From positions 3,321 through 67,320 of the forward strand of contig JAYTAP010000080.1 of NCBI GenBank assembly GCA_043737475.1: a stretch of 64,000 nt of DNA, written 5' to 3'. This DNA comes from Sphingomonas sp. (GTDB lineage Bacteria > Pseudomonadota > Alphaproteobacteria > Sphingomonadales > Sphingomonadaceae). This document shows positions 46,563-64,000 of the stretch, in pieces (position 1 is the stretch's first letter; each line of letters starts with the position of its first letter). Position numbers and translations under genes: made by a program. The notes beneath the pieces were generated by a model. That model was not told the DNA's origin. It searched no databases and saw only the letters and a list, made by a program, of their open reading frames with translations.

Positions 46563-47438
46563 CTACGCGCAATGCCGGATCAAATAGGGGCGACTTACAG
46601 CGCCGGTTAATTCGACCACGCAGCTCCGGCTGGCGACGGCGCCTGACGGATATGATGCCGTGACCGAAATCGTGAAAGGACGCGCCACGCGGCTCGTTTT
46701 ATCCACAAAATCAAGTGCGGTTACCTGTCCCTGACTTTGGCGGCCGCGTATGATTTGATCGACGGCGGCGTCGCCTGCCGGATACATGACAGCAATGGCG
46801 GCCGGTGTTGCCGTCTGCAGATCGAAAGTGCCGTTACCGAAGTCAGTCGTCGCGATCAAAGCAATTTTTGTGAAAACGTCCGGCGGAAACCCGCGGACAC
46901 GGCCGAGTTCGCGCAATGTCTGCAACGGCGCATTGCGTGGGGCTAGGCCTTCCTTACGGTAAAACGCGCGTTCGGCACCACTCGGTCGTGCTTCATCATC
47001 TTCATCGATCCAGTCAAGGAACGAATCGCGTGCAACCTGAAGTGGCTCGCCGGACAATCCGGCGTATTCGAGCAGCGCCGCAAGTTGCGTTTCGTCGATA
47101 AGATTAAGCGGCACCTTTCCGCGCTCGTCGCGCACAATGATTTCAAGGCTGCCGTCATCGAAAACAAGCCGGCGTGGCGTGCCGTCGACCGGAAATGCGT
47201 TCGCCGCTTCGTTCGCCAAAAGTCCGCGCAGCGCGAGCGCGATACCTGCTTCGGCAGCAGCGCTAGCGCGTGCCGCTTCGACTTCGGCGCTGCCGGTGAC
47301 GATGACACGCCGCGTCAGGGTCAGCGCCGCCAGTGCAACAATTGCAAAAAACAATATGGCAGCAACGGCTGCAACGAGGGCGTACCCTTCTTGGGCCGCA
47401 GGACGAATGCCGACGGTCAATCTGCCGTAAAAATTCAT
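46563..47438 (-). CDS. gspK: T2SS minor pseudopilin GspK
   Basis: Prepilin-like G|YALVAAV without Glu5, RDERGKVPLN, DWID.DD, LQTLRELGRVRGF. Confidence 0.9.
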   Translation of the reverse strand: MNFYGRLTVGIRPAAQEGYALVAAVAAILFFAIVALAALTLTRRVIVTGSAEVEAARASAAAEAGIALALRGLLANEAANAFPVDGTPRRLVFDDGSLEIIVRDERGKVPLNLIDETQLAALLEYAGLSGEPLQVARDSFLDWIDEDDEARPSGAERAFYRKEGLAPRNAPLQTLRELGRVRGFPPDVFTKIALIATTDFGNGTFDLQTATPAAIAVMYPAGDAAVDQIIRGRQSQGQVTALDFVDKTSRVARPFTISVTASYPSGAVASRSCVVELTGAVSRPYLIRHCA

Positions 47439-47950
47439 TCGGCGGGCGCGTCTTGTTCGACCGCCACCATTGGCGTTGCCCCGTAAGCGATCTGGTGGCG
47501 GACGTTGTTCTTGACGAAAACCGCACCCTCGGGGCGCAGCGCGATCAGGCGCCAGCCATCGACTGCGCCGCCGATCGCGATGTTCGACACCCTACCGTTG
47601 GCGCGCCGGACAACCGCGAAGGCGCGTCCGCGAATTGTGACCGTCCCGGCGACTGAAGCCCCGCCGAGCGGCAGTGTCTGAACGCTCGGCCGCGTAGCCA
47701 ACGACTGGCGCGGCGCGAACAATGGCCGGTCGAATATCACCCGCGCGGCGCTTACGGGCGAAACGGCAGGCATGGCGAAATCGAACCGACTTGCGCCGAT
47801 GGCAAGCACCGGCGGCAAGTCGGGCTCGCGATCGGCCGAAACGAGCTGGATCGCCAGCGCGATAGCAAGCAAGCTGGCCAAGACGCCCGGCAGATACGTG
47901 CCCTCAACGCGACTGGGAAAGGATAACGGGAACTGAAATGTCAAAGCCAA
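47435..47950 (-). CDS. T2SS accessory protein, GspN/GspC-like
   Basis: One TM, RPLFAPR motif, C-terminal beta domain (GTV...AVV...GGAVDGWRL). Position between gspM and gspK. Confidence 0.65.
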   Translation of the reverse strand: MALTFQFPLSFPSRVEGTYLPGVLASLLAIALAIQLVSADREPDLPPVLAIGASRFDFAMPAVSPVSAARVIFDRPLFAPRQSLATRPSVQTLPLGGASVAGTVTIRGRAFAVVRRANGRVSNIAIGGAVDGWRLIALRPEGAVFVKNNVRHQIAYGATPMVAVEQDAPAE

Positions 47951-48470
47951 CCTCCATCAAGTCCGGGCGGCCGCTGATCACCGCCTGATCCGCAGAAATA
48001 TCGAGCGACTCGATGGCAAGATAGGGCGGTTCGTTTTCGAGGCGTGTCAGCACCGTTGTCAATTGTCCGAGGGTCATGCGCGCAGAAACCCGCGCACGAA
48101 CCGCCGCCTCGTCATCCGTCGCGTCATCGACTGCGCGGACTTCACCGCCGACGTCTTCGATCGTTTTCTGCACACGGTCCAGCAGACTGGTGAGCGCTGC
48201 TGCCTTGGTGGGAGCGGTCATAACGACGTTGCGAAGCTGCTCACGCTGTCGCTCGGCTTGCCGCCGCAGCCGCGGGATCGAGCCGATGATACGCTGGTGC
48301 TGCTGATATTGTCGGGTCAACAATGTGCGCTTTGCGGCACGGTCGCTGAAACCGGACAGGATCGGGCCAACGACGGCCAGCCAGATCAACCCAATGACCG
48401 CGACCAGAATAAGGATCGCAACGAGGCCGCGCTCGCGTGGCGAAAGGCTGCGGGTGGGTAGAAGCGCCAT
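47904..48470 (-). CDS. gspM: T2SS inner-membrane platform protein GspM
   Basis: LSPRERGL + TM + coiled coil + ferredoxin-like domain (LTRLENEPPYLAIESLDI). ATG overlaps the gspL stop. Confidence 0.85.
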   Translation of the reverse strand: MALLPTRSLSPRERGLVAILILVAVIGLIWLAVVGPILSGFSDRAAKRTLLTRQYQQHQRIIGSIPRLRRQAERQREQLRNVVMTAPTKAAALTSLLDRVQKTIEDVGGEVRAVDDATDDEAAVRARVSARMTLGQLTTVLTRLENEPPYLAIESLDISADQAVISGRPDLMEVGFDISVPVILSQSR

Positions 48471-49486
48471 CAGCGTTGCGCAATTTCGGCGACGAGGTCG
48501 AATGGCTGCCCCGTTGCGGTTTCGGCGATCGAGTCGGTCTGCGCGCTCTTGACGTTGGCAAATCCTGGAAGCTTGCGAAGCGCGCTTGCAACATCGGTAT
48601 CGCGCGAACGGTAACCGGTCAGCCGGAGCGTTGCGCCGTCCCACGCGTAGCGCTGGACCCACGCGCCGTCCGGAACGGCCTGCGTGATCGCGGCCAGAGT
48701 CGACAACGGTTCACGTTGCTGACGCTGCAGCGCAGCGCGTTGCGCGTGCGCGTTCATCGCCCGCATCCGCGCCGTAATACGCTGCGCCACAGTGACAGCC
48801 GGTCGCTGGCCATCGACAAGCGCCTGCAGCCGCTCGATATCTGCCGTGTCGCGCCAGGAAAGCATCGCAATGTTGAGAAGCGCGAGCGCGGCAACCACGG
48901 CCCACCAATTTGCGCGACCGGGTCGATGCGAACCGAGTAGCCCGCTACGCTGCATCTGCGGAAGGAAATCGAAGCGCGGATCCACGTGCTCGTCGCGCAA
49001 GACGCGCACTGCGGCGGGTATCAGGCCGGTCGCCGAGATGGCTACGGCAATTGCCGTCGCCCGCGTGATCGGCAGCGCCGCGACATCCACTGTCATCAAG
49101 CCTTCATCAGTCCGCGTGCGACGGGGGGTGGCTGAAAGCAATATCGATTCGGTCGGCATCGGGAAATAACGACCGGCGTTGAGCGCAAGCATCCGGTTCA
49201 CCTCGCTGGCCGACATCGGTGGTACCGTGACCTCGCGCACAAGAAGCTGATTTTCGTTGATGACGATGATCGCACCGTCGCTTGGCGCGCGACCAAGCGC
49301 GTCGCCTGTTGCGGCATCATGCCACACGCCATCGTCGAGGGTCAGCATTTGCCGGTTGCGCTGGCCGAAGCGCTGGAGCGACGACGGCACCAGTGCAGCA
49401 AGTTCATCGATCCACCAGTCAAACCCCCGCCGCGCTTCATGTCGCAGCGTCGTGAGATCACTGTTCAGCAGGTCGTTGAGCGTCAT
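48470..49486 (-). CDS. gspL: T2SS inner-membrane platform protein GspL (PilN-like C-terminus)
   Basis: FDWWIDELAALVP N-terminus, TM, coiled coil, VPDGAWV...LRLTGY...LPGFANV. Confidence 0.85.
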   Translation of the reverse strand: MTLNDLLNSDLTTLRHEARRGFDWWIDELAALVPSSLQRFGQRNRQMLTLDDGVWHDAATGDALGRAPSDGAIIVINENQLLVREVTVPPMSASEVNRMLALNAGRYFPMPTESILLSATPRRTRTDEGLMTVDVAALPITRATAIAVAISATGLIPAAVRVLRDEHVDPRFDFLPQMQRSGLLGSHRPGRANWWAVVAALALLNIAMLSWRDTADIERLQALVDGQRPAVTVAQRITARMRAMNAHAQRAALQRQQREPLSTLAAITQAVPDGAWVQRYAWDGATLRLTGYRSRDTDVASALRKLPGFANVKSAQTDSIAETATGQPFDLVAEIAQR

Positions 49487-50166
49487 GACGATGCTCCGCA
49501 CCGGCCGGTCAGCACATCGATCCTGCACGCGGTGTTGTCCGTCGCGCGCGGCCGGACGATCAAATCAGGCCAGACGCGTCGGTCGCCGGACCTCAGGGCG
49601 ACACGAATGCGCACAAGTGCGGGCGGCTGCGGGCGTTGGAACCAGTTGATTTGCCACGACGTGCCCGACCCGGTCTGGCGCGCGCCAAAATAATTGATCT
49701 GGAACGACTGGACGTTTTTGAGGAGTATAATTGGCTGCCACCCCTTTGAACCGGGCATCATGAAATCGTGACGGTCGTCAAGGCTGTTTGCCGTGAGCAG
49801 CGTAAGATCACCAGCGGGCGTAAGGATTATCCGGTAACGCCAGAGGCTGTCGGGCTCGTTGCGCGCGAGCGGAACGGATTGGAAAGTGAACGCACTTTGA
49901 TCGCCAACAGCATCCACGATCGCGACTGCGCTGTCGGGATCGACGACCGGCCGCAATTGTTCGATCCGGTCGCGCAACACGCGCTGTGCCGCGATGACGC
50001 TTTCGTCGGCTTCGAATTGCCCTGCACTGCGCTGACCGAACAGGCTGGTGGTGCGAAGGCCATTGAGCAACATAGCGGCAACCATGCCAAGTAATGCGAG
50101 GCTGACCAGCATTTCGACGAGCGTGAAGCCGCGATCGCGGCGGCAAGCGGCCGGGGGGGTGATCAC
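49483..50166 (-). CDS. gspJ: T2SS minor pseudopilin GspJ
   Basis: RG|FTLVEMLVSL; C-terminal W...PALVRIRV...WPDL. Confidence 0.88.
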   Translation of the reverse strand: MITPPAACRRDRGFTLVEMLVSLALLGMVAAMLLNGLRTTSLFGQRSAGQFEADESVIAAQRVLRDRIEQLRPVVDPDSAVAIVDAVGDQSAFTFQSVPLARNEPDSLWRYRIILTPAGDLTLLTANSLDDRHDFMMPGSKGWQPIILLKNVQSFQINYFGARQTGSGTSWQINWFQRPQPPALVRIRVALRSGDRRVWPDLIVRPRATDNTACRIDVLTGRCGASS

Positions 50167-50168
50167 AA

Positions 50169-50546
50169 TCAGCGCCCGAGTCTGAGCGAGCGCAGTCGCA
50201 GCACGGGGCGGTTGGTGTCAGCGCGTTCGACCGTGACGGTGATAAGGTTGAGCGCCGGTGCCGTTCCGCTGCGCGATAAATACGGTTGCACGCTGACTCG
50301 CCAGCGTAGCGACCCGGCAATGCCTGCCTGCCGCTCGTTGCCCGTCGCATTTGCACCGATTGCGCCGTCGAGTGCCGATTTCGCAACCAGGACTGCCATC
50401 CGGCGATCGATCATCGTCTGGGTCGTGCGCGCGTTGCTTGCCAACGTCTGAAAGGTGACGCCCATGATCGTGGCAATGATTGCCAGCGCGATCAACGTTT
50501 CGATCAGGCCGAAACCGGCCTCATAATGGCGACGGTCACGGGTCAT
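50169..50546 (-). CDS. gspI: T2SS minor pseudopilin GspI
   Basis: AG|FGLIETLIALAI; 125 aa from ATG 50546. Confidence 0.85.
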   Translation of the reverse strand: MTRDRRHYEAGFGLIETLIALAIIATIMGVTFQTLASNARTTQTMIDRRMAVLVAKSALDGAIGANATGNERQAGIAGSLRWRVSVQPYLSRSGTAPALNLITVTVERADTNRPVLRLRSLRLGR

Positions 50547-50956
50547 GCCCAGCGCGACGTGACGACGCCGGTTTGCGGATCGATTGTCACGCTGAAACGA
50601 CGCGAGCGCGACTTCATCGCAAAGATACCGCCGCTCGATGTTCCGTCGCGAAAGAAGCGAAGCGCGGCCGGTTGTTCGATATCGATATCCACGGGCAAAG
50701 CACTGCGCGTCAATGCCAACCCGGTGCGCGGATCGGCTTTCACGAATGGTGCCAGCCTGACGGTCCGGTTCTCGCGGATTGCTGTCGCCTGCGCCTGGCG
50801 TATTGCCAGCTCGACTTGCACCGCTGCCGTGTTGAATGCGCGAGAGCTGATGGACTTGTCGATTGCAGGAAAGCCGATGGCCGCAATCAATCCCGCCGCC
50901 GCGATAACGACAAGCATTTCGAGAAGGGTAAACCCGTTGGCGAATGGCTTTTTCAC
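50543..50956 (-). CDS. gspH: T2SS minor pseudopilin GspH
   Basis: NG|FTLLEMLVVI; FFRDGTSSGG...DPQTGVV typical of GspH/FimT. Confidence 0.85.
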   Translation of the reverse strand: MKKPFANGFTLLEMLVVIAAAGLIAAIGFPAIDKSISSRAFNTAAVQVELAIRQAQATAIRENRTVRLAPFVKADPRTGLALTRSALPVDIDIEQPAALRFFRDGTSSGGIFAMKSRSRRFSVTIDPQTGVVTSRWA

Positions 50957-52164
50957 TGCGCGATCGCCAGGTCATTAAAGCCGAGAATGGCAGACATGAT
51001 CGCCGCGATAATTCCCGCGACGGCGGCGCCGAGGATGACCGTGATCAGCGGCGTCAGGATGGCAACAACGCGCGTCAGCCGAACCTTCACGTCGCGATCG
51101 AGGACATCGCCGAGTCGGCTGAGCATCATGCCAAGCTGCGACGATTCCTCGCCGGTGCGCACGAAGCCGATCGCAATATCGGGCATGATCCGGGCCGCAG
51201 CAAGCGGCGCTGCAAGTCCATCACCTTCACGGATGCCGTCGGCGATCTTCGACATCGCGGCGTTGATATGGCTATTGCGGATCGTGCGCTGCGCCAGTGT
51301 GACGGCCACGGGCAGCGAGACCTGCCCTTCGACAAGCGCACCGAGGGTGCGCGCAAACCGCGCCGTATCGAGACGCTGGACGAGGGCCCCGAGCTGCGGA
51401 ACGCGAAGAACGAACTGGTCAAGGCCCAAGCGCACGGCGGGTCGCATAAGCATGAAGCGCGCCGCAATGCCCGTGACGATCAACCCGAAAAACACGAGTA
51501 GGCCATTCGCGCGCAATGCGCTGCTTGCCCAGAGCACCCATTGCGACGCAGCGGGCAGCTGCGCGGCGTTCTTTCCCATCAGTGATTCGAATTGCGGCAC
51601 GACGACGAGAAGCATCAGCAAGATCACGCCGACAGCAATGACAAGCAGCGCGATCGGATAAATCAGCGACGTGATGACGAGCCGCCGAAGCTCGGCCGCA
51701 CGCTCGAGCATTTCGGCAAGGCGCGTCAAGGCATCGGGCAACGTGCCGCTTGCTTCGCCGGCTTCGGTCATGGCGACCGCCGTCGGACTGACGAGATCGG
51801 TTGCCTGCGCAAACGCGCCAGACAAAGGCTGCCCTTCGCGCACCGCGAGCAGCAGCGGGGCAAAGCGCTCGGCGAGTTTCTGGGGCTCGATATTGCCGAT
51901 TGCCAGCCCCAGCGCGCGGTCGAGCGGGAGTCCGGCTTTCAAAAGCACCGCAAGTTCGCCGATCAGGAGCGCGACGGCGGCATTCGCGGCACCGCTCGGC
52001 TGCGTCCTGCGTGTCTTTGCTGTCTCACGCACGGGCTGGACATCGACGAGTATACCACCCGTCGAACGGACCTGATCGACCGCCTGAGCCAGGTTATTGG
52101 CGGTGATCGATCCGCGCCGCGACGAACCATCCGGCATTATGGTTCGGTATTGAAATGCGGTCAC
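50953..52164 (-). CDS. gspF: T2SS platform protein GspF
   Basis: FQYR start after SD GAGGA; LLKAGLPLDRAL, GEASGTL, LIYP, GEESSQL, LTPLIT. Confidence 0.93.
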   Translation of the reverse strand: MTAFQYRTIMPDGSSRRGSITANNLAQAVDQVRSTGGILVDVQPVRETAKTRRTQPSGAANAAVALLIGELAVLLKAGLPLDRALGLAIGNIEPQKLAERFAPLLLAVREGQPLSGAFAQATDLVSPTAVAMTEAGEASGTLPDALTRLAEMLERAAELRRLVITSLIYPIALLVIAVGVILLMLLVVVPQFESLMGKNAAQLPAASQWVLWASSALRANGLLVFFGLIVTGIAARFMLMRPAVRLGLDQFVLRVPQLGALVQRLDTARFARTLGALVEGQVSLPVAVTLAQRTIRNSHINAAMSKIADGIREGDGLAAPLAAARIMPDIAIGFVRTGEESSQLGMMLSRLGDVLDRDVKVRLTRVVAILTPLITVILGAAVAGIIAAIMSAILGFNDLAIAQ

Positions 52165-52169
52165 GACCG

Positions 52170-53903
52170 TCAATCCTCGCTCACGACGCGGAGCACTTCC
52201 TCGACGGCGGTAACGCCTTCGACCGCGCGGCGCAGGCCGTCGTGGAGCAGCGAACGCATCGCCTTCCGGCCCGCCGCCGCTGCGATCGCGCGCGTGTCCT
52301 GCCGCGCAAGGATCAACGCCGCAATCTCTTGATCGACAATCAGAAGCTCGAAAATCGCCATGCGTCCGGCATAGCCGGTGTTGCTGCACTGCGGACAGCC
52401 GACCGGATGCCAGACATGCTCGGGCACAGCGATCCCCGCCTTCACAAATATTGGAACAAGCGCGTCCTCGGTCGGCCGTTCTTCGCGGCATGCCGGGCAC
52501 AAGCGGCGGACGAGCCGTTGCGCGACCACGGCAGTGAGGACCGAGCTCAGCAGCAACGGCTCGATCCCCATGTCGAGCAGGCGCGTTACTGCGCCGGGCG
52601 CCGTATTGGTGTGCAGCGTCGACAGGATCATGTGGCCGGTCAGCGCCGCCTGCACTGCAATCTCGGCGGTTTCGGTGTCGCGAATTTCGCCGACCATCAT
52701 GACGTCCGGATCCTGGCGCAGGAACGAGCGCAGCGCTGCGCCGAACGTGAAGCCGATGCCCGGATTGACTTGCGTCTGGACAACGCCTGGCAAGCGGTAC
52801 TCGATCGGGTCCTCGACCGTCAGTAATTTGCGCTGGCGCTGGTTGAGTTCGGCAAGTGCTGCGTAAAGTGTCGTCGTTTTGCCGCTGCCGGTCGGGCCGG
52901 TCACGAGGACAATACCATGGGGCGTGTGTATTGCGGTGCGCAGCTGCGCTGTGAGTGCGTCGGAGAATCCGAGTGTCGCAAAATCGAGCGCAAGCTTCGA
53001 GCGATCGAGGATGCGCATGACGACGCTTTCGCCGTGGATCGACGGCGCGGTCGCCACGCGCAGATCGATTTCATGTCCGCGCACCGCGAGGCGTAACCGC
53101 CCATCTTGCGGCAAGCGGCGTTCGGCGATGTTCAGCGCGGCCATGATTTTGATGCGAGAAACGATCGATGCGCGCATCGCGGCCGGAAGCGGTGGCATGT
53201 CGCGCAGAACGCCGTCAACGCGGAAGCGGATTGCCAAGCTGTCATCGGTCGGCTCGACATGAATGTCCGACGCGCGCGCGTCGGTCGCCATCGCAATCAT
53301 TCGATTGACCGCACGGATTACGGGCGCATCGCTGAGAAGGTCCTTCAAACGCTCGAGGTCTTCGCCTTCGACGTCGGGTTCGCTTTCGGCCTCGGGCACG
53401 TCACTGCGGTAAAGCCGGTCGATGGCCGCATCAATGTCGCTGCCGCGGCCGATGACGAACGCAATCGGTCTGTCGAACAGGAAGGCCATCGATTTTTCGA
53501 GGAATGGATCGAACGGGTTGACGACGGCGACCCGAGCGAACGCGCCGTCGAACGCGACCGGAACACAGCGATTGTCGCGCAGGAACGCAAGCGAGGGCTC
53601 GACCCCGCCGACTGCGGTGAGCGGATACTGATCCTGCGGACAAAACGGCAGGCCGGTGGCAGCAATAATTGCCTCGGCGAGGCACTGTTCGGTGATAAGA
53701 CCAAGCCGTGTGAGGACGGCGTCAAGGCGCTCGCCGCTGCCGTGTTGGACAACGAGGGCGCGCTTGAATGCTTCGTCGGTCAGGATTGCCCGCGCGCGGA
53801 ACAGCGCTTCAAGCGACGCATAATGTGCGCGCAACTCGGGTCCGGCGTTCAGGCCGTCACTGCTTTCATCGCGCGCTCGACCAAAGCCGTCGAAACTATC
53901 CAC
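52170..53903 (-). CDS. gspE: T2SS traffic ATPase GspE with N-terminal N1 domain
   Basis: ASDIHVEP, AERRLPQDGR, GPTGSGKTT, TVEDPIE, LRQDPDVMMVGEIRD, STLHTN, CPAC/CPQC. Confidence 0.97.
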   Translation of the reverse strand: MDSFDGFGRARDESSDGLNAGPELRAHYASLEALFRARAILTDEAFKRALVVQHGSGERLDAVLTRLGLITEQCLAEAIIAATGLPFCPQDQYPLTAVGGVEPSLAFLRDNRCVPVAFDGAFARVAVVNPFDPFLEKSMAFLFDRPIAFVIGRGSDIDAAIDRLYRSDVPEAESEPDVEGEDLERLKDLLSDAPVIRAVNRMIAMATDARASDIHVEPTDDSLAIRFRVDGVLRDMPPLPAAMRASIVSRIKIMAALNIAERRLPQDGRLRLAVRGHEIDLRVATAPSIHGESVVMRILDRSKLALDFATLGFSDALTAQLRTAIHTPHGIVLVTGPTGSGKTTTLYAALAELNQRQRKLLTVEDPIEYRLPGVVQTQVNPGIGFTFGAALRSFLRQDPDVMMVGEIRDTETAEIAVQAALTGHMILSTLHTNTAPGAVTRLLDMGIEPLLLSSVLTAVVAQRLVRRLCPACREERPTEDALVPIFVKAGIAVPEHVWHPVGCPQCSNTGYAGRMAIFELLIVDQEIAALILARQDTRAIAAAAGRKAMRSLLHDGLRRAVEGVTAVEEVLRVVSED

Positions 53904-54003
53904 TGATCAGTCCTTTATCGGCGACGGTGTATGGCAACGGGTCGAACTTTACAGTGGTCGTCGCGCGAAGCCAGCACGCCCGTCCTTCGATGCAAAACGA
54001 CGA

Positions 54004-54537
54004 TCATCGCGTACCGAGCGCATAGCTGCATGGACCCTGATAGACGGTTTTCAGGTTCATTGCGGCGACGTCTGTCGCGGTCGTCATGAATAGATTGGCC
54101 GTCCGCGTCGTTTCGTCGATTTGATTGATTACCATGAAATGGGCCAGCGGGCGCTTGATCGTCTGCGTCAGTTCGACACGTTCCGGCCATAAATCGACCA
54201 CGCGTTCAAAACCCGCCGGAACGCCGCGGCGCAGCCCGGAGGGATCGGAAAGCACCTGTGTCGTCGGGTTGGCCGCCGTCGTCGGATCGGCGGCGTCGGG
54301 TGCCGGTGCGCCGCGCGAAATTGCCGCCGGGACGAACACCGTAAAGTTGTGCGACCCCTCATATTTGATTTCGTCCATCCGCTGCTCTTTCGTTGGATCG
54401 AGATTGAGCGCGAGACCGAGTTTGCAGCGGAATGTTCGTGACGGGATCGTCATGCCCGCATCAGGCACCGCAGCCGTTCCACAACCAGCGATGCCAATTC
54501 CTAATGCCAAAATGATCGCCAAAATCTTAGATGACAT
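54004..54537 (-). CDS. Hypothetical lipoprotein heading the gsp operon
   Basis: MSSKILAIILALGIGIAGC lipobox; two further Cys; same strand as and upstream of gspE. Confidence 0.75.
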   Translation of the reverse strand: MSSKILAIILALGIGIAGCGTAAVPDAGMTIPSRTFRCKLGLALNLDPTKEQRMDEIKYEGSHNFTVFVPAAISRGAPAPDAADPTTAANPTTQVLSDPSGLRRGVPAGFERVVDLWPERVELTQTIKRPLAHFMVINQIDETTRTANLFMTTATDVAAMNLKTVYQGPCSYALGTR

Positions 54538-54752
54538 AAAAGTAACCAATGAGTCCCGATCGATTTTTGGCCGCTAAGGCACCTGTGTGACTCTGGCATG
54601 ACCAGCAACCGCCACCATCATGTCACCGTGACGTAAAGAGTCGCAAAAACTAAACAATTGGGATGCACATGTCGGCGTCTGGCAGTCGCGCACATCCAGA
54701 AACTCTCAGGGGCTCCGCACTTTAGATGCTTAATGTTTCTCGCCCCTCGGCC

Positions 54753-56474: not shown

Positions 56475-56501
56475 AATATGCGCATGATCAGGGGACAAGC
56501 C

Positions 56502-58262
56502 ATGACCAAGTTCTTCGTTTCACTGTTGCTATCGTTGATCGCGATAACGACCCCGGCGCATGCGTGGTGGAACGATGACTGGACCTATCGCAAGGCAGTG
56601 ACCGTCGACACGTCGCCGTCGGGCGTGAGCATGAGTGGCACGGTCGGGCGCACGGTCGTCCTGATAAGACTGACCGACGGCAACTTCTCCTTCGCTCAGG
56701 CAGCAAAAAACGGTGCCGACCTGCGCATTGTCGACAGCGACGACAAGACCCCCTTGCCCTATCATATCGAGAGCTATGCCGAAGGCATGGCGAGCGTCTG
56801 GGTCTCGCTTCCTGCACTCAACGGTGGTGAGAAAAAGCAGCTCTGGCTTTATTTCGGCAATGCAAATGCCCCCGTCGGCGACGATATGAAGGGCAGTTTC
56901 GACCCCGACTATCTCGCGGTTTATCACTTCAGTAGCGCGGCGGGGCAACCTGCCGGCGACGCGACAGCGAACGCCAACAATTCGGCAAGTCCGGTGGTCA
57001 GCGTCAACGACGCATCGGTGATCGGACGCGGGGCGCGTTTCCCCGGGCAGGGCGCACTGACGATCAGTGATTCGCCATCGCTGGCGATGCCTGCGGGTGC
57101 GCAATTCACATTCTCGACCTGGGTAAAGCCTGACCAGCTGGCGGGTGAGGCAGCACTTTTCGCACGTGGCCCGATGATCATCGGGATGAATAACGGCGCG
57201 CCGTTCGTGGCGCTCGGCGGCGCACGGACGCAAGCGGCGACTGCGCTCAAGCAGGGGCAGTGGAGTCATCTTGCGGCTGTCGCCGACGGCGAGACAGTCC
57301 GCCTTTATGTCAATGGCATCGAAGCCGCTGCCGCATCAGTCGCGCTGCCTGCCCTGACGGGTCCGATCAACATCGGTGGCGCAGAAGGTCGGCCCTTTAC
57401 GGGCGAAATGGACGAAGTGCGCCTGTCGAAGGTTGCGCGGCCCGCCAACATGCTGCTGGCAATGGCAAATGCCGAAGGCCCGGGCACGAAGTTGGTCGGC
57501 GTCGCCGAGAGTGCCGAGGAAGCGGGCGGCGACGGCGGCGTGCTTTGGTTCATCATCAGCAAAATCCATACCCTCGACATCGGTATCATCGCGCTTTGCA
57601 TGTTGCTGCTCGCGGGCGCGATCGGGGTGATGGTTTCCAAGATCACCTATCTGAACGCTGCCGATCGCGGCAACAAAGTGTTCATGAAGCGCTTTCGCGA
57701 GATGCATGAGGAGCTTGTACCGGTTGACCAGATCGCGGGCATCACACCGCAGGAAGTGACCTATATCAACAAGTCGCCGCTCGGTCGTCTTTACAAGGAA
57801 GGCATCGATGAACTGGCGATTCGTAAGCGCACGCATGGTGAACGGGCATTGTCGGGTGAGGCCGTCGAAGCGATGCGCGCTGCAGTCGATGCCGTTGCGG
57901 TGACCGAAAACCAGAAACTCGACAGCTTGATGGTCGTCCTGACGATCGCGATTTCGGGCGGGCCGTTCATCGGACTGCTCGGCACCGTTATCGGCGTGAT
58001 GAGCACATTTGGCGGCGTGGCGATGGCAGGCGACGTGAACGTCAACGCGATCGCACCGGGCATCGCGGCGGCGCTGCTCGCGACGATTGCCGGACTCGCC
58101 GCAGCTATCCCGGCGCTGTTTGGGTACAACTACTTGAATGGCCGGATCAGCAAGCTCGCCGACGACATGCGCGTGTTCGTAGACCGGCTGATCACGCGCC
58201 TTGCGGAGGTTCAGGCCGACGCCGCGCATACCCCGCCCCCCTTCAAGATAGCTGCAGAATAA
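56502..58262 (+). CDS. DUF2341-LamG-ExbB fusion protein
   Basis: Signal peptide; WWNDDWTYRK and DLRIVD..DKTPLPYHIE (DUF2341); STWVKP, WSHLA, LYVNG, GEMDEVRLS (LamG); GPFIGLLGTVIGVM...GIAAALLAT (ExbB). Confidence 0.9.
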   Translation: MTKFFVSLLLSLIAITTPAHAWWNDDWTYRKAVTVDTSPSGVSMSGTVGRTVVLIRLTDGNFSFAQAAKNGADLRIVDSDDKTPLPYHIESYAEGMASVWVSLPALNGGEKKQLWLYFGNANAPVGDDMKGSFDPDYLAVYHFSSAAGQPAGDATANANNSASPVVSVNDASVIGRGARFPGQGALTISDSPSLAMPAGAQFTFSTWVKPDQLAGEAALFARGPMIIGMNNGAPFVALGGARTQAATALKQGQWSHLAAVADGETVRLYVNGIEAAAASVALPALTGPINIGGAEGRPFTGEMDEVRLSKVARPANMLLAMANAEGPGTKLVGVAESAEEAGGDGGVLWFIISKIHTLDIGIIALCMLLLAGAIGVMVSKITYLNAADRGNKVFMKRFREMHEELVPVDQIAGITPQEVTYINKSPLGRLYKEGIDELAIRKRTHGERALSGEAVEAMRAAVDAVAVTENQKLDSLMVVLTIAISGGPFIGLLGTVIGVMSTFGGVAMAGDVNVNAIAPGIAAALLATIAGLAAAIPALFGYNYLNGRISKLADDMRVFVDRLITRLAEVQADAAHTPPPFKIAAE

Positions 58263-58287
58263 TGGCCAAGAACGAGGAGCGCATGAC

Positions 58288-58695
58288 ATGAAAGCCGGTG
58301 GTGGCCGCAAGGCCTATGACGACATCAACATCACGCCGATGCTCGATCTTGCCTATGTGTTGCTGGTCATCTTCATCCTGATGGCGACGGCAAGCGTCCA
58401 GGGCATCAAGGTCGATCTGCCCAAGGCGTCGGCTGCGCAGAGCCTGGTCCAGCCCAAGACAGTCGCGATTACGGTCAACAGCGAAGGGCAGATCTTCATG
58501 GATGCCTTTCCCGTGACGCTTCCCGAACTCGAAGCGCAACTTCGCAGCAAGAAGGCCTCGAACCCCGATCTGCCGATCGTGCTCAAGGGCGACCAGACGG
58601 CGCAATACGGCAAGATCACCGAAGTGCTTGACCTGTGCCGCCGTCTCGACCTGAGCAAGGTCGGGCTGGTCACCGGCAAGCCGACTGCGGCCTAG
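58288..58695 (+). CDS. exbD: ExbD of the secretion island
   Basis: DINITPMLDLAYVLLVIF, VDLPKA, IVLKGD. Confidence 0.92.
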   Translation: MKAGGGRKAYDDINITPMLDLAYVLLVIFILMATASVQGIKVDLPKASAAQSLVQPKTVAITVNSEGQIFMDAFPVTLPELEAQLRSKKASNPDLPIVLKGDQTAQYGKITEVLDLCRRLDLSKVGLVTGKPTAA

Positions 58696-58717
58696 CGCAA
58701 AGAGCGGGGACCGACAC

Positions 58718-59434
58718 GTGGCCGACCAAGCAGCCTTCAAGGCCCCGGGCGAAAGCGACGCAAAGCGCTGGGTAACCTATGTCATCGGCGGCTTGCTCAT
58801 CCTGGGGATCCTTTGGTTTGTTTATCGCCAGTTGACGGTGCCCGTGACGATCAAGGCAAAAGACGAGCGGACGATTACGGCCGCGCCTGATTTGCTGCCA
58901 CCGCCACCGCCACCGCCACCCCCGCCGCCGCCACCCGAGCCGCAGGAAAAGCCGCCCGAGCCAACCGAAACGCCGACGCCGTCGCCCGAGCCTGCCGCCA
59001 AGCCCGATACCCCTGCACCGATGCAGATGGATGCGGCACCCTCGGCCGGGAGTGACAGTTTCGGATTGTCGGCGGGCAAAGGCGGCGGGATGGGCGGCAC
59101 GGGCTCTGCCGGCACATGCCTCAAACCGCCCTGCGGCGGCGGTGGTGGCGGCGGGTTCAGCGATGCAATGTATCGCGGCAATCTGGGGCGCGAGCTTCAG
59201 GATCGCATTCTCGACAACGAGAAAGTCAACCGGCTCGCTTTCAAAGCCGTCTTTGCCATTTCGGTTGGCAGCGCAGGGCAAGTGACGAGTGCCGAACTGC
59301 TGAGCTCGACCGGCGACGCCAAACGTGACCAGATCTTGCTGGCGATCTTGAAAAGCACGCGTGGCCTCGAAGCACCACCGTCGCAAGTGAGATTTCCCCA
59401 GCGCGTGACCGTGACCGGTCGCCGATCCTTCTAA
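58718..59434 (+). CDS. Atypical TonB-like protein
   Basis: N-terminal TM, 13-Pro run, Gly-rich linker, C-terminal TonB_C-like domain (LLSSTGD..RD). Confidence 0.8.
   Translation: MADQAAFKAPGESDAKRWVTYVIGGLLILGILWFVYRQLTVPVTIKAKDERTITAAPDLLPPPPPPPPPPPPPEPQEKPPEPTETPTPSPEPAAKPDTPAPMQMDAAPSAGSDSFGLSAGKGGGMGGTGSAGTCLKPPCGGGGGGGFSDAMYRGNLGRELQDRILDNEKVNRLAFKAVFAISVGSAGQVTSAELLSSTGDAKRDQILLAILKSTRGLEAPPSQVRFPQRVTVTGRRSF
58898..58936 (+). repeat. Poly-proline codon tract
   Basis: cca ccg cca ccg cca ccg cca ccc ccg ccg ccg cca ccc = 13 consecutive Pro codons. Confidence 0.85.
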
Positions 59435-59487
59435 ATGCAAAGATGAACACAGGCGCCATGGCGCGGAAAAGCAAAGAGGAATTGATC

Positions 59488-61254
59488 ATGACTGCCGCAA
59501 CAACAATGCAAAGGATGCGCCTTCTGACGTGCAGTATGCTCATCAGCGTGGCTTCACTGAGCGTTGCACACGCACAGGATGCAGCGCCTGCCGCGGCACC
59601 GTCGGAAAGCTCCATGGTCAATCTTGTCCGCCAGCTCGTGAAGCAGGGGGTGTTAAAGAAGGATGCTGGCGATGCACTCATGGCGCAGGCCGAGGCCGAA
59701 GCTGTGCAGGCGCGCGCGGCTGCTCCGACCCAGACTGCAAATGCTGCGTTGCCCGATGCTGCCCCTGGCGCGATCCGCGTGCCCTATATCCCCGAAACCG
59801 TGCGCAACCAGATCCGCGACGAAATCCGCACCGAAGTTCTGGCGCAGGCCAAGACCGAGGGCTGGGCAAGCCCGGGTCAGACCGCACCAGAATGGACAAA
59901 ACGCATCAGCCTGTTCGGTGATTTCCGCTTCCGCTCGCAATCCGACCTCTATTCGAAAGCGAATTCGCCGTTCATCTTCGATTTCGCGCGCATCAATGCG
60001 GCCGGACCTTTCCCGATCACCACCGCGCTTTCGATTCCCTATGTCAATTCGACCGTCGATCGGGTCAACCGCTTGCGGATCCGCGGCCGGATTGGACTGA
60101 AGGCTGAACTCGGCGGTGGTGTCAGTGTCGTAACGGCTGTCGCGACAGGAAACGACAACAGTCCGATTTCTTTCAACCAGACGCTTGGTGGCGGATTGGC
60201 CAAACGCAATATCTGGCTCGACCAAGCCTATCTGAGACTTGCACCAAGTGATCTCTTCAAAGCGAGCTTCGGGCGCTTTCCCAACCCGTTTGTGTCGACC
60301 GACCTCTTGTTCGACGACGATGTCCGATTCGACGGCGTGGCAGCGGAATTCAACGGTGGCCAGTTTATCAGTGACGACTTCAAGCTCGCAATTCGCGGCG
60401 GTGCTTTCCCGCTCGATTTCAATTCGGGCGATTTCCCGAATACCCAGCAGGTCAAGCGCAAGGCGCCGGTGAAGTATCTTTATTCGGGACAGATTACGGT
60501 CGGTGCAGCAATCATGGATAATGTCGAGGTGAGCGCCAGCGCAGCCTATCATAGTTTCCAGGGTGTACAGGGTCAGTTTTCAGAACCTTGTGTGCTATAC
60601 CTTGGCGCGACCGAATGTTCGACCGACTCCTTCCGGGCTTTTTCACTGCGTAAGGGCAACACGGTATTCGGCCTGCGGAACATTGTCATCAATCCAGATG
60701 CGACCCGTGCACTCCCCGCCGACCAGAATCAATTGCTCGGACTTGCTTTCGATTATGACATTTTAGACATCAATGCATCGGTACGTGTTCCGATCAGCGA
60801 GAAAACTTTCGTGAAAGTGAGCGGCAATTATCTGCGCAATCTTTCTTTCAAACGAACTGACATTTGTCGCTACGGCGTCGCGGGCGAACCATTCAACAAC
60901 GGCGGCGCAGGGGGCACAACGCTATGTGCAACAGTAAATCCGCGCGCATTTGCCGGCGGTCCATCAGGCTACCAAGCAAAAGCGTCGATCGGCTATGACG
61001 ATGTCGCCGCCCGCGGGCAATGGAACGCTCAGCTTGGCTATCGCTATGTCGAGTCGGACGCGGTGCTGGACAGCCTGACTGACAGTAATTTCCATCTGGG
61101 CGGCACCAACGCCAAAGGGTATTTCGTCGGCGGCAAATATGGCATTTTCGACAAGGTCACAATTGGCGGTCGCTGGTTGAGTGCAAACCAGATCTCCGGA
61201 CTTGAGCCGTTGGCAATCGACGTTCTGCAGATCGACCTCGAAGCGAAATTCTGA
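59488..61254 (+). CDS. Putative porin-type outer-membrane beta-barrel with N-terminal helical extension
   Basis: SD GAGGA; signal peptide; GDFRFR, RLRIRGR, DDDVRFDG, DSNFHLGGTNAKG; ends LQIDLEAKF. Confidence 0.85.
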   Translation: MTAATTMQRMRLLTCSMLISVASLSVAHAQDAAPAAAPSESSMVNLVRQLVKQGVLKKDAGDALMAQAEAEAVQARAAAPTQTANAALPDAAPGAIRVPYIPETVRNQIRDEIRTEVLAQAKTEGWASPGQTAPEWTKRISLFGDFRFRSQSDLYSKANSPFIFDFARINAAGPFPITTALSIPYVNSTVDRVNRLRIRGRIGLKAELGGGVSVVTAVATGNDNSPISFNQTLGGGLAKRNIWLDQAYLRLAPSDLFKASFGRFPNPFVSTDLLFDDDVRFDGVAAEFNGGQFISDDFKLAIRGGAFPLDFNSGDFPNTQQVKRKAPVKYLYSGQITVGAAIMDNVEVSASAAYHSFQGVQGQFSEPCVLYLGATECSTDSFRAFSLRKGNTVFGLRNIVINPDATRALPADQNQLLGLAFDYDILDINASVRVPISEKTFVKVSGNYLRNLSFKRTDICRYGVAGEPFNNGGAGGTTLCATVNPRAFAGGPSGYQAKASIGYDDVAARGQWNAQLGYRYVESDAVLDSLTDSNFHLGGTNAKGYFVGGKYGIFDKVTIGGRWLSANQISGLEPLAIDVLQIDLEAKF

Positions 61255-61403
61255 AGGGTCGGCAGCGTCCCGTTTCCGGACGCGCTAAGGAGAACATTGG
61301 CCAGTGACCAATTAGTTTCAAAAGACTGCAACATAACGCTCCTACCCCAAGAATTAACCGAATCGTCATGTTTCGGATCCTCAAATTCTGGGCGGGCGAC
61401 CGT

Positions 61404-64000
61404 ATGCAAGGCACTCAGGCAGTTCGAACGGTGCATAGCAAGCGCGCGGGGTACAGGCTGCTTCAAACGACGAGCCTTGTGGCACTTGCATTGACGATGA
61501 ACGCGACCCCCGCCCGCGCGCAGCTTGCCGCCTTGCGCGCATCGCTGGGTGTCGCGCCGGTGGTGGTGACGCCTGCGAATGCGGTGCCGATGCGCCCTGT
61601 GGGGATGCGCGAAGTGCTCGCTCGCTCGGTCGAGCATCAAGCGCTGGCAAACAATATGCGCGGGGCGATCCTCGAGGCGCAGAAAGCTGCGATTGCCGCG
61701 ATCCGCAATCCGACGCTGGCTGCCGTGAGGGACGGGCTTACGGGTGCCGATGGCAGCAATGCCGGTGCAGGGCTCGATCCCGTTCGGACCGGCACGGTCA
61801 CCGCGCTTGACCCGACGGGCGTGAACACATGGCAGGGCGCACGTTTGCCGACGCAGGTCGACAAGGACGGCAAGCCGCTCGTCACGATCGTCCAGAGCGA
61901 CAGCCGTGCGATCCTTTCTTGGAATCGCTTTGACGTCGGCGCAAACACGACCCTGAATTTCGAGCAGAAGCTGAACGGCGTTGCCCAGCCCGGCTGGGTT
62001 GCGCTGAACCGCGTCGCCAATTCGGTTGCGCCAAGCCGCGTCCTGGGATCAATCACGGCCGATGGCACGGTGGCGGTCATCAATTCACGCGGTGTCGTTT
62101 TCGAAAAAGGTTCGCAGGTCAATCTGCACTCGTTGTTGGTGAGTTCGCTCGACATCGGTGGTTTCACCACCCGGAAGTTGATCGATCCGACAGACGTCAA
62201 TTCAAGTTTGGCAGATGCTGTTGCCACGATCGCCGACCGAAATCTGACGTTTCTCGCGTCAGGGCTGCAGAGCTCGGTCGCCGTGGACGGCAAACCGATT
62301 TACCTTGTTTCCAGCGTGCTTAACGCAGTCGACAACTTCACGAATATCCCGTCGGAGGGCGGGATAACAATCGATCGCGGTGCAACGGTAAATGCGATTG
62401 GTGGCGGGTTCATCATTGCGACGGCTCCGAGCGTGAGCAATGCCGGGATCCTTTCTGCACCCGAGGGGCAGGTTAGTCTTCAGGCCGGGCGTGCCATAGC
62501 CTACGCGGTTTCTACAGGGGCGGCGACGACAACCGACATTGTCACGGGGATCGGTCCGGACGTCCGAGGCCTGGTTTTGCGCTCATGGTTCGGTTTGGAC
62601 GGTGCTGTCGCGAATTCCGGACTCGTCCATGTTCCACGCGGATACATATCGCTTGGCACTGGCGAGGGCGGAACGGTTACAAACCTGGGGCTGCTGGCCT
62701 CGACGACGAGTGTTGCCCGCAATGCAAAGATTTCGCTGACAGGCGAGACGATTTTATTGGGCGACAAGACGAATGCGAGCGGTATCGTGGTCACACCCGA
62801 TACCAATGGCGAGACCGTGCCGATCGGCACCTCCCTTGCACCGCCTGCGTTCAAATCCACCAAAATCGAGATCGGTAATATCTACCTTTCGCGGGGCCGA
62901 TTCGATGAAAGTAATCCCAGCCAGTTAGCCGCATCGTTCTTCGGGCCTGCTGCGGTTAAATTCGACGAAAAATCGCTGTTGCTTGCGCCGAATGCCGATC
63001 TGGTCGTGGGCGGCAAGGGGTTCATCGAACCTAATCTGACGCAGCCGATTTATCAGCCGCTTTCGCTCGGTAACATCGACGTCCTTGCCGGCGCCGTCAT
63101 CGACGTCGGCGGCGTGAAAGACCTTCAGATCGATCCGTCGCGCAACAGCCTGATGATCGATCCGTTGAAGCGCAACGAACTTCGTGACTCGCCCACTTAT
63201 CGCGAAGTGACGACCAATGGCGATTTCACGCTGAACGGGGCAACGGTCTACGTCGATCCGCGGCTTTCGGGCGTGCGCAATGACGGGGTGGCGTGGGTCG
63301 GTTCGCCGCTGATCGAAGCGGGCAGCGCTGCGAGCCAGATACCCGTCACGGCGGCCGAACTGATGACGCGCGGCGGCACAGTCAGTTTGACGGTTGCCAC
63401 GGCGACAACACAATTGACGAACGCGTCGCTTGGGAACGTCACGCCGGTTCAAGCGCCAACGATCAATATTTCAAAGGGTTCGGTCATCGATTTTTCGGGG
63501 GGCTGGCTCCGTTTTGGCGACGGTTTCGTGCGGTCCAGCAAGCTGTTGACCTCTGACGGGCGGATTGTGGAAATCGGCAGGGCCGACCCGAACGACAATT
63601 ATATCGCGGTGGGCGACGGCTTTACCGAAATTCAGGCGAAATTCGGCGTATCGCGCACGTTTGCCAATTCGCTGTTACAGGGCGGGCGCCTGGAAGTTGG
63701 CTATGACGAGGGCCGCGATGCCGGTTCGCTGAGCCTGACGGCAACGACGATGAATATCGAAGGCCTGCTGGACGGTCGCGCGTTTGCAGGCGTGCGCCAA
63801 TCGGCGGGCGGCATGCGCGGTACGCGGGACTCTGCCATCGCAGGCGACCCGCGCAAACTTCAGGCAACGGCTTCACAATTGTCCTCAAGCGGCGCTTTGA
63901 TCGTGTCGGCTGGAAGGCGCGACGCGACTGCGAACGAAGCGTCATATGGGGCTGATATAATCGTTTACCACGGTGATCGATCAGCGGTTGCACGGCCGTT
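61404..64000 (+). CDS. Large filamentous-haemagglutinin-like TpsA exoprotein (3'-truncated; not in the ORF track)
   Basis: Frame read open wherever translated by hand from 61404 (alternative ATG 61368) to the window end. Signal LLQTTSLVALAL..ARAQ; TPS domain (AILSWNRFDVG, ALNRV, VINSRGVVF..GSQVN); beta-helix-like repeats. Confidence 0.9.
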   Translation, partial: MQGTQAVRTVHSKRAGYRLLQTTSLVALALTMNATPARAQLAALRASLGVAPVVVTPANAVPMRPVGMREVLARSVEHQALANNMRGAILEAQKAAIAAIRNPTLAAVRDGLTGADGSNAGAGLDPVRTGTVTALDPTGVNTWQGARLPTQVDKDGKPLVTIVQSDSRAILSWNRFDVGANTTLNFEQKLNGVAQPGWVALNRVANSVAPSRVLGSITADGTVAVINSRGVVFEKGSQVNLHSLLVSSLDIGGFTTRKLIDPTDVNSSLADAVATIADRNLTFLASGLQSSVAVDGKPIYLVSSVLNAVDNFTNIPSEGGITIDRGATVNAIGGGFIIATAPSVSNAGILSAPEGQVSLQAGRAIAYAVSTGAATTTDIVTGIGPDVRGLVLRSWFGLDGAVANSGLVHVPRGYISLGTGEGGTVTNLGLLASTTSVARNAKISLTGETILLGDKTNASGIVVTPDTNGETVPIGTSLAPPAFKSTKIEIGNIYLSRGRFDESNPSQLAASFFGPAAVKFDEKSLLLAPNADLVVGGKGFIEPNLTQPIYQPLSLGNIDVLAGAVIDVGGVKDLQIDPSRNSLMIDPLKRNELRDSPTYREVTTNGDFTLNGATVYVDPRLSGVRNDGVAWVGSPLIEAGSAASQIPVTAAELMTRGGTVSLTVATATTQLTNASLGNVTPVQAPTINISKGSVIDFSGGWLRFGDGFVRSSKLLTSDGRIVEIGRADPNDNYIAVGDGFTEIQAKFGVSRTFANSLLQGGRLEVGYDEGRDAGSLSLTATTMNIEGLLDGRAFAGVRQSAGGMRGTRDSAIAGDPRKLQATASQLSSSGALIVSAGRRDATANEASYGADIIVYHGDRSAVARP

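Follow-up and report, generated by a model that had tools for sequence, protein, structure and literature searches.

The window analysed here is a 64,000-nt stretch of the Sphingomonas sp. contig JAYTAP010000080.1. The region studied within it (46563-64000) holds two divergent gene groups: genes for two-partner secretion (TPS), a Tol/Ton-like motor and a porin on the plus strand, and a type II secretion system (T2SS) cluster on the minus strand. We regard it as probable, at about 0.6, that these are two separable things, namely a motorised TPS cassette that extends from 54726 to the end of the window and a T2SS cluster at 46563-54537. The TPS pair, the stator, the TonB-like protein and the Porin_5 barrel very probably form one functional unit, and it is likely that the T2SS is not an obligatory part of the cassette.

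TPS is taught as the simplest secretion route, with one pore, one substrate and an outer membrane that has no energy source. Yet in hundreds of species, including genetically tractable, clinically studied ones of Pseudomonas, Burkholderia and Serratia, a TPS pair is locked to a private, apparently proton-driven motor and a porin. The Pseudomonas cassette is already known, and its motor has been called 'uncharacterized' since 2009; beyond this, the linkage is far broader than the literature we found suggests. Because it exceeds that literature and poses a testable energy question in type V secretion, we consider its interest moderate to high. A further puzzle, though a smaller one, is that an otherwise conserved T2SS cluster has cleanly lost gspG and gspD.

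A preliminary description of this DNA had read all of these parts as one integrated system. Every gene that it named was found at its coordinates by open reading frame listing and family scans, with family matches far above chance. The idea of integration is supported for the TPS, stator, TonB-like and Porin_5 genes, which are inherited together across phyla, but not for the T2SS as an integral part (6 of 81 loci). The co-occurrence check it had proposed for these families had the same split outcome: the DUF2341-ExbB, porin and TPS genes travel together, while the Gsp genes are mostly absent nearby.

Composition and conservation of the cassette

The plus-strand genes of the cassette are:

54726..56474, plus strand: tpsB, Omp85-family TPS transporter (PF03865, ShlB, E=1e-18; PF08479, POTRA_2, E=9e-13)
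56478..58262 (likely start 56502), plus strand: stator A subunit, a DUF2341-LamG-ExbB fusion of 594 amino acids (aa) (PF10102; PF13385, Laminin_G_3; PF01618, MotA_ExbB)
58288..58695, plus strand: exbD/tolR-like stator B subunit (PF02472, E=8e-31)
58718..59434, plus strand: TonB/TolA-like protein, 238 aa (TIGR01352, 25.1 bits; family alignment)
59443..61254, plus strand: Porin_5 outer-membrane barrel (PF16930, E=1.6e-154)
61368..64000, plus strand: giant tpsA, first 877 codons, open at the window end (PF05860, E=6e-14; TIGR01901)

To place this gene set, the ExbB-fusion family was searched exhaustively, which gave 933 representatives at E<1e-30 in more than 120 full-length clusters at 50% identity. 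A pattern scan over one genome per species confirmed at least 594 loci, and the best 80 were fetched with 10-kb flanks. Their open reading frames were searched with the window proteins and all were clustered; counts below are out of 81 loci. The fetched loci come from Alpha-, Beta- and Gammaproteobacteria, Verrucomicrobia, Anaeromyxobacter and Thermodesulfobacteriota.

The exbD gene follows the fusion in 80 of the 81 loci, and a TonB-like gene lies downstream in nearly all loci with enough DNA. Porin_5 was present in at least 61 of the 66 loci with enough downstream DNA, and two of the five scored as being without it gave 430 bits for Porin_5. TpsB or a giant TpsA of the FHA-family/DUF3739 type was found in 46 of the 47 loci in which both flanks reach at least 9 kb. 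The DUF2341 and LamG domains on the ExbB subunit, and the Porin_5 barrel, were recorded in all cassette family members seen; two Micropepsaceae loci that have no Porin_5 are taken up below. A profile search with the porin family retrieved many proteins of Pseudomonas, Burkholderia, Serratia, Xanthomonas and Bradyrhizobium. After the porin, 63 of 81 loci (66 before overlapping open reading frames were resolved) continue with a gene for a periplasmic coiled-coil protein of ~240 aa.

Two layouts recur. That of the window reads (ECF sigma-FecR)-tpsB-exbB-exbD-tonB-porin-(coiled coil-PpiC)-tpsA, where ECF stands for extracytoplasmic function, and it occurs in Sphingomonads, Bradyrhizobium, Rhizomicrobium, Burkholderia, Lysobacter, Steroidobacter, Verrucomicrobia and Anaeromyxobacter. 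The window's order tpsB, exbB, exbD, tonB-like, porin was found in 33 of 81 loci and is the same in P. protegens and Serratia. In the window and its Sphingomonad relatives the coiled-coil, YbjN and PpiC genes are absent between porin and tpsA, so that tpsA comes directly after the porin; they could lie beyond tpsA. In the second layout the giant gene is directly upstream of exbB, and where no tpsB is adjacent to exbB the genes run tpsB-tpsA-exbB. On a longer contig of this type tpsB lies upstream of the giant gene, which has both a TPS domain and DUF3739. A protein search for the full-length giant TpsA of a locus without adjacent tpsB gave fragments only (up to 2,146 aa), and the neighbourhood of one fragment was used instead.

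The pairwise divergences of the components, uncorrected for species phylogeny, are correlated with r = 0.61-0.93 (Porin5-TpsB 0.93, ExbB-TpsB 0.89, Porin5-TonB 0.81). This indicates that the parts of the cassette are not shuffled among lineages.

The visible part of TpsA shows a hydrophobic leader, recognised by reading the sequence, and has its TPS domain at residues 162-310 (PF05860, E=6e-14; TIGR01901, 50 bits against a cut-off of 29). The canonical motifs of this domain are NPNL and NPNGI. Read by eye, the window protein has 'NRV' and 'INSRG' at their places, and its TPS domain is divergent. TpsA orthologues measure 4367-4574 aa. DUF3739 is carried by all six Sphingomonad orthologues and by every orthologous TpsA whose domains were recorded or scanned; in two giant TpsA that were scanned it is located ~70 residues from the C-terminus, a part that in the window protein lies beyond the window end. 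By homology, TpsB would export a giant TpsA of ~4,400-4,600 aa with a DUF3739 domain.

In many taxa the cassette stands beside exopolysaccharide genes (44591-46155 in the window; loci L085, L086, L088, L083 and many of L003-L082). These neighbours include Poly_export, sugar transferase, glycosyl- and acyltransferase genes, tyrosine-kinase-like ParA, a large TPR protein, exosortase and PEP-CTERM-type export genes. Such a neighbourhood is compatible with TpsA being an adhesin of the biofilm matrix. The Burkholderiales loci L005, L007, L009 and L013 have a family-4 glycosyltransferase gene between giant tpsA and the exbB fusion, a hint of possible TpsA glycosylation that would fit the lectin-like domains of the stator. 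A small secreted protein of ~120-150 aa with 'CVDV...C(L/I)N' and 'PQRP' motifs accompanies 18 tpsB-first loci (e.g. L034 2491-2859, L073 5584-6021); the two motifs are conserved, and the protein has no family match and is not a pseudopilin. A small conserved protein ('c9') was considered as a pseudopilin and rejected, as it has a signal peptide and conserved Cys residues and is without a prepilin motif.

Matches that are 63-91% identical carry the names Sphingomonas, Novosphingobium and Sphingorhabdus and so point to Sphingomonadaceae. The remainder of the window is ordinary chromosome. Near-identical DNA occurs in metagenomes from sediment, glacier and soil.

The divergent T2SS cluster and its missing parts

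The minus-strand genes and the spacer that separates them from tpsB are:

46563..47438, minus strand: gspK-like minor pseudopilin, last T2SS gene (PF21687, E=8e-12; NF037980, 63 bits; 67% identical in locus L087)
47435..47950, minus strand: 171-aa bitopic protein in XpsN/GspC position (no Pfam match; 58% identical in L087)
47904..48473, minus strand: gspM, XpsM type, frame open to 48662 with likely start Met at 48473 (NF040576, 96.3 bits, cut-off 60; PF10741)
48470..49486, minus strand: gspL-like (PilN domain PF05137, E=4e-7; 33-55% identical to GspL of L002 and L087)
49483..50166, minus strand: gspJ-like minor pseudopilin (N_methyl PF07963, E=8e-10; PRK08808)
50169..50546, minus strand: gspI-like minor pseudopilin (XpsI, E=1.5e-10; TIGR01707)
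50543..50956, minus strand: gspH-like minor pseudopilin, a 137-aa prepilin (XpsH/GspH matches)
50953..52167, minus strand: gspF (PF00482, E=1e-43; TIGR02120, 286 bits)
52170..53903, minus strand: gspE ATPase with MshEN N-domain (PF00437, E=5e-138; PF05157; TIGR02533, 590 bits)
54004..54537, minus strand: 177-aa lipoprotein, lipobox IAGC, first minus-strand gene (no family match; 66% identical in L087)
54538..54725, no strand: divergent intergenic region, 188 bp, with the motif GAGTCGCAAAAACTAAACAATTGG at 54638-54661

Judged from its genes, 46563-54537 is a T2SS of the Xps-like E-F-G-H-I-J-L-M-N-D-K subtype from which gspG and gspD have been lost. The ATPase GspE, the platform proteins GspF, L and M and the minor pseudopilins H, I, J and K are all there. 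A homologue search found no gspG in the cluster or elsewhere in the 64 kb and returned only matches to the N-terminal helix; since gspF directly abuts gspH (50953/50956), no gspG lies at this position, where relatives carry a GspG of 148 bits. The 137-aa prepilin was considered as a degenerate GspG and rejected: it is GspH-like across its whole length, and its GspG match is confined to the N-terminal helix. For gspD, tblastn with a relative's secretin gave no match anywhere in the 64 kb. Relatives have gspD between N and K, and in the window N and K overlap by 4 bases. No open reading frame for gspO was encountered in the cluster or the window, although no search was aimed at it.

The junctions without gspG and gspD are clean and translationally coupled. 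The same layout, with all nine open reading frames intact, is found in a 71%-identical relative whose proteins are 53-75% identical to those of the window. Thus the cluster is maintained in this form and is not decaying. T2SS relatives of this subtype that have no cassette possess both gspG and gspD. Next to the cassette, gspG is absent from T2SS clusters in two alphaproteobacterial families (noted for L087, L091 and L034), the exception being Novosphingobium, whose cassette-adjacent T2SS has gspG as well as gspD. In Micropepsaceae the cassette lies inside a T2SS operon, with a prepilin peptidase gene upstream and E-F-H-I-J-L-M-C-D downstream, gspG and Porin_5 both being absent.

The 171-aa bitopic protein is 38% identical to the C-terminus of a Novosphingobium protein encoded between gspM and gspD. 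The lipoprotein may not be a T2SS component, because a 37% homologue occurs at L088 1904-2359, a Sphingomonad locus without an adjacent T2SS. GspE matches MshEN with 47.6 bits, and its match to the cyclic-di-GMP-binding motif is below threshold (26 bits, cut-off 38).

How often does such a cluster accompany the cassette? Of the 81 loci, 6 have T2SS or type-IV-filament genes; among the 47 whose flanks both reach at least 9 kb there are 2. These counts refer to adjacency within 10 kb and do not reach a T2SS elsewhere in those genomes. Over the same distance, no T2SS accompanies the cassette in P. protegens or Serratia. Among Sphingomonads a divergent T2SS is present in 3 of 7 loci (the window, the 71%-identical relative and Novosphingobium fuchskuhlense). 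In the relatives nearest to the window, two loci at 87-88% identity, exopolysaccharide genes occupy the T2SS position; these are glycosyl- and acyltransferase genes, which a further locus has there as well. In another Sphingomonad (locus of P0098) an alkaline phosphatase gene is divergent from tpsB. Looked at from the other side, a metagenome scan anchored on GspL of this T2SS subtype gave 19 loci with the usual operon E-F-G-H-I-J-L-M-N-D-K; of the seven with 2.5-5 kb visible upstream of gspE, which is the tpsB side in the window, none showed a cassette there. Weak GspK/GspJ-like matches in Bradyrhizobium loci were not accepted as a T2SS, since they reached 23-37 bits and had no prepilin motif.

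T2SS adjacency is nevertheless commoner than chance and occurs in several lineages and arrangements (P ~2e-5 to 5e-2, depending on the assumptions). This makes a looser functional or regulatory tie between T2SS and cassette plausible. Probably the T2SS is a facultative neighbour, a module that acts separately or is co-regulated.

The spacer gives a similar picture. The preliminary description had seen a shared control region of ~215 bp; the intergenic region measures 188 bp and is better called merely a divergent spacer. Its one conserved element is the motif GAGTCGCAAAAACTAAACAATTGG, ~65-90 bp upstream of tpsB, which is kept in six Sphingomonad loci whether a T2SS or a transferase gene lies upstream. 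The tpsB operon thus has a control element of its own, independent of the T2SS. No match to the sigma-70 consensus was found in the 188 bp. A Pho box or shared operator was considered for the spacer and rejected, as there were only weak half-site resemblances by eye. Two 20-nt direct repeats (54579-54598 and 54665-54684), 86 bp apart and 75% alike, both end in CTGGCA.

Genes for ECF sigma factors flank the cassette in 13 of 81 loci and FecR-type genes in 10 of 81. No ECF/FecR pair was found among the window open reading frames scanned, nor in any Sphingomonad locus seen. An alkaline phosphatase gene (PF00245) lies at 35276-36880 on the minus strand, 9.7 kb from the T2SS; together with the one beside tpsB elsewhere, it brings to mind how the P. 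aeruginosa locus is controlled by phosphate starvation.

Motor, arm and porin, and their possible action

The stator A subunit has, in the AlphaFold model (pLDDT 79), a signal peptide, two beta-sandwiches at 37-150 and 175-317 and then a three-helix channel domain. In Foldseek the channel domain matches TolQ/ExbB with a TM-score of 0.80-0.85 on the target, and for the N-terminal part the matches are carbohydrate-binding modules and lectin domains. In sequence, the stator is nearer to TolQ/TolR than to ExbB/ExbD (tolQ 118 bits, exbB 66), and its best structural matches are TolQ as well. No genes for TolB or Pal are present in the cassette, which is therefore not a Tol-Pal set in spite of its TolQ/TolR-like stator. 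An alignment to a solved ExbD shows that the essential transmembrane Asp is kept. With this Asp and a channel domain of predicted TolQ/ExbB-like fold, the motor looks proton-competent. The preliminary description had called the motor private, and rightly so: a separate housekeeping tonB-exbB-exbD-exbD operon is present at 20802-23272, which makes the cassette motor an additional one. The layout of that operon agrees with the essential tonB1 operon of Sphingobium SYK-6 (PMC8599685). DUF2341-LamG modules also occur in giant proteins of up to 7,867 aa (P0121, P0123-P0125, P0127, P0130), which have up to 23 of them in tandem.

The TonB-like protein consists of a transmembrane anchor, a poly-Pro spacer, a 'DAxGxAGSDxFGL' motif, a Gly-rich stretch and, at the C-terminus, a domain of ~90 aa whose pattern is TonB-like. 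This domain scores 25.1 bits with TIGR01352, below the cut-off of 27.1, and orthologues match PF13103.

The porin model (AlphaFold pLDDT 81) is a barrel of ~16 strands that follows three periplasmic helices. Its best Foldseek matches are OmpM1, MOMP, PorB, OprB, OmpF, DcaP and AlgE, and no TonB-dependent receptor was among the best 50 structural matches listed. Neither PF07715 (Plug) nor PF00593 matched the barrel, and a TonB box was likewise not found. The term "plug-less barrel" in the preliminary description was thus apt, the model being that of a porin with an N-terminal helical extension into the periplasm. A TonB-dependent transporter requires a plugged barrel of 22 strands; with ~16 strands and no Plug domain, the cassette barrel is not one by its features. 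Two segments of the periplasmic part before the barrel are strongly conserved in the family alignment, 'NLIxxLVxQGVL...' and 'VRVPYVPExVKxEIRxQV...W'. A profile of the porin had no match among the sequences of solved structures, so that only the fold comparison was informative.

A possible interpretation is that the stator is driven by the proton-motive force and transmits a pull, via the TonB-like protein, to the periplasmic extension of the porin (the VRVPYVPE motif and the helices), with this N-terminal extension as the candidate site engaged by the arm. Such motor action could control the outer-membrane step of the giant TpsA, most likely that of its C-terminal DUF3739 end, be it passage, anchoring or regulated release. 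In the periplasm the substrate would be attended by the lectin domains, joined in other taxa by the PpiC chaperone and the coiled-coil protein. A specific mechanism of secretion, anchoring or release through motor and porin is offered tentatively. Somewhat more doubtful still is the wider proposal that the cassette is a distinct, energised branch of type V secretion, in which a lectin-bearing Tol/Ton-like motor with a TonB-like arm on a stalked porin threads, anchors, tensions or releases the DUF3739 end, and for which some Alphaproteobacteria have recruited a T2SS platform shorn of pseudopilin and/or secretin. If the motor does act on the adhesin, an energised step would be added to type V secretion and Tol/Ton-type motors would have a new client. 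On the energised branch, the proton-motive force would govern the surface display of a TPS substrate.

Several points weigh against reading the region in this way. The Glu in the third transmembrane helix (TM3) of TolQ/ExbB is replaced by Ala ('APGIAAALLA' against 'APGIAEALIA' in TolQ; channel domain 57543-58259), and this Ala is the consensus in a diverse alignment of the stator family and invariant among Sphingomonad sequences. The anchor of the TonB-like protein is, in the family alignment, without the His of canonical TonB. The lack of a phylogenetic correction in the divergence correlations counts here too, as do the two Micropepsaceae loci, which have a T2SS with secretin directly downstream and no Porin_5 at all; the porin is thus not indispensable everywhere, and in some lineages a link to the T2SS does exist. 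In any organism, the motor and the porin appear tied to TpsA by comparison only. Classical TPS moves a TpsA of similar size without a motor, which leaves the need for one unaccounted for. In P. aeruginosa, transposon mutants in tpsA, tpsB, PA0695 and PA0696 were unchanged in one virulence assay, which is uninformative on secretion (PMC2729926).

The same parts could serve uptake instead: an extracellular TpsA would capture or liberate a nutrient that the porin and its private motor import, much like HxuA/HxuB-HxuC. We hold this to be unlikely, since the barrel has neither a detectable TonB box nor a Plug domain, a plug-less 16-strand porin needs, to our knowledge, no energy, exopolysaccharide and biofilm genes are commoner beside the cassette than genes for nutrient use, and the conserved DUF3739 end of TpsA together with the PpiC chaperone points to substrate handling and not to import. 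What speaks for uptake is the HxuABC precedent (PMC5422565), the induction of the P. aeruginosa operon by phosphate starvation (PMC4971064, PMC7035377), the two alkaline phosphatase genes described above, one divergent from a Sphingomonad tpsB and one 9.7 kb off in the window, and a barrel fold shared with diffusion porins such as OprB, DcaP and chitoporin. Motor, TonB-like protein and porin might also do no transport work at all and relay an outside cue, for example contact of TpsA with a surface, to an ECF sigma/anti-sigma pair. Classical cell-surface signalling does require TonB. Moreover, 13 of the 81 loci have flanking ECF sigma genes and 10 have FecR-type ones, and in P. aeruginosa the cassette lies beside VreAIR (PUMA3) and is controlled by it (PMC2729926, PMC4971064). 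Most loci, however, including the window and all Sphingomonads seen, have no such pair nearby, and where it occurs it is more readily understood as a cassette regulator specific to those lineages; a role in signalling is therefore very unlikely.

The two remaining explanations differ from the preferred one in where they draw the boundary. In the full composite, a T2SS platform without GspG and secretin, the TPS pair, the motor and the porin would be one machine, in which, for example, the inner-membrane platform and the tip pseudopilins could use TpsB or Porin_5 as their exit through the outer membrane. The nine coupled T2SS frames kept intact in the window and in its 71-75% identical relative despite the loss of gspG and gspD, the Micropepsaceae cassette embedded in a gspG-less operon and the presence of T2SS or type-IV-filament genes beside the cassette in at least five lineages, in varied arrangements and above chance, all argue for it, as do the Hxc-like T2SS genes that adjoin the cassette in P. 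aeruginosa, P. fluorescens and B. vietnamiensis (PMC2729926). The gspG-less clusters are the best remaining argument and give a hint, from small numbers in two lineages. But T2SS genes are near so few cassette loci (6/81; 2/47 with long flanks), the closest relatives have exopolysaccharide genes in their place, the T2SS of Novosphingobium retains gspG and gspD, none of the seven same-subtype clusters shows a cassette in its visible upstream DNA and P. protegens and Serratia do without a T2SS within 10 kb, so that one single machine seems distinctly improbable. Conversely, T2SS, TPS and motor could be merely clustered, the Tol-like motor and the porin being a device for envelope tethering or maintenance apart from TPS. 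A stator nearer to TolQ/TolR by score and structure and a porin whose best structural match, OmpM1, is an outer-membrane attachment porin would suit this. Against it, TPS genes are present in 46 of 47 well-flanked loci, across phyla that include Verrucomicrobia, Anaeromyxobacter and Thermodesulfobacteriota and in two gene orders, which is hard to explain without a shared function; we give independent neighbours hardly any chance. A motorised TPS cassette next to a separable T2SS accounts best for these observations.

Comparison with known systems

The porin resembles OmpM1 of Veillonella and DcaP of Acinetobacter, which also combine a 16-strand barrel with an N-terminal helical extension in the periplasm. 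It differs from them in its low identity (9-14%), the absence of an SLH domain, a conserved motif of its own in the extension and the tie of its gene to a motor. The motor shares with Tol-Pal and TonB-ExbB-ExbD a channel subunit of pentameric-type fold, the TolR/ExbD Asp and a Pro-rich connector with a small C-terminal domain. Unlike these motors, it adds periplasmic DUF2341-LamG domains, has Ala for the TM3 Glu and no TonB His in the connector anchor, and comes without TolB, Pal, YbgF or a plugged receptor.

With classical TPS (FhaB/FhaC, ShlA/ShlB, CdiA/CdiB) the cassette has in common an Omp85-type TpsB with POTRA_2 and ShlB domains and a TpsA with an N-terminal TPS domain. It is set apart by the four extra genes between tpsB and tpsA, the divergence of the TPS domain and a TpsA of the DUF3739 family. 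HxuABC of Haemophilus influenzae is alike in the genetic link between its TPS pair and an outer-membrane protein energised by TonB (PMC5422565). However, HxuC is a plugged 22-strand receptor served by the housekeeping TonB, whereas the cassette has a plug-less porin of ~16 strands and a private, lectin-bearing motor. As for the T2SS, E, F, H, I, J, K, L, M and a protein in the XpsN position are recognisable as in Xps/Gsp systems; in contrast to these, the window cluster is without the major pseudopilin and the secretin, and no prepilin peptidase was encountered, though gspO was not searched for.

The closest likeness is to the PdtA/PdtB locus of P. aeruginosa. The parallel to pdtA/pdtB, exbB2-exbD2-tonB-like, a porin gene and the hxc T2SS, drawn in the preliminary description, is borne out by the literature (PMC7035377, PMC2729926). 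The published order is PA0692 (pdtB), exbB2, exbD2, tonB4, PA0696 ('putative outer membrane porin') and PA0697, with PA0698 annotated as YbjN family, PA0699 as PpiC and PA0701 as LysR (PMC7035377). TPS, ExbBD and PA0696 homologues are reported to accompany PUMA3 clusters in several genera (Llamas et al., PMC2729926). Our search of the literature on DUF2341, DUF3739, Porin_5 and TPS with ExbB found no paper on what the motor and the porin do. In P. protegens we find TpsB, DUF2341-LamG-ExbB, ExbD, TonB_2, Porin_5, a 215-aa protein, YbjN, PpiC and LysR. Gene set and order of the cassette are thus the same, P. protegens being compared by sequence and P. aeruginosa by published annotation, and a T2SS cluster (Hxc) is nearby in P. 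aeruginosa too. Unlike P. aeruginosa, the window carries neither an ECF sigma/anti-sigma pair nor phdA, and between its porin and tpsA there is no gene for a coiled-coil, YbjN or PpiC protein. Its T2SS is divergent and without gspG and gspD, both of which the Hxc system has. On the grounds of gene content and order, the window cassette is of the same kind as pdtB-exbB2-exbD2-tonB4-PA0696 plus pdtA of P. aeruginosa.

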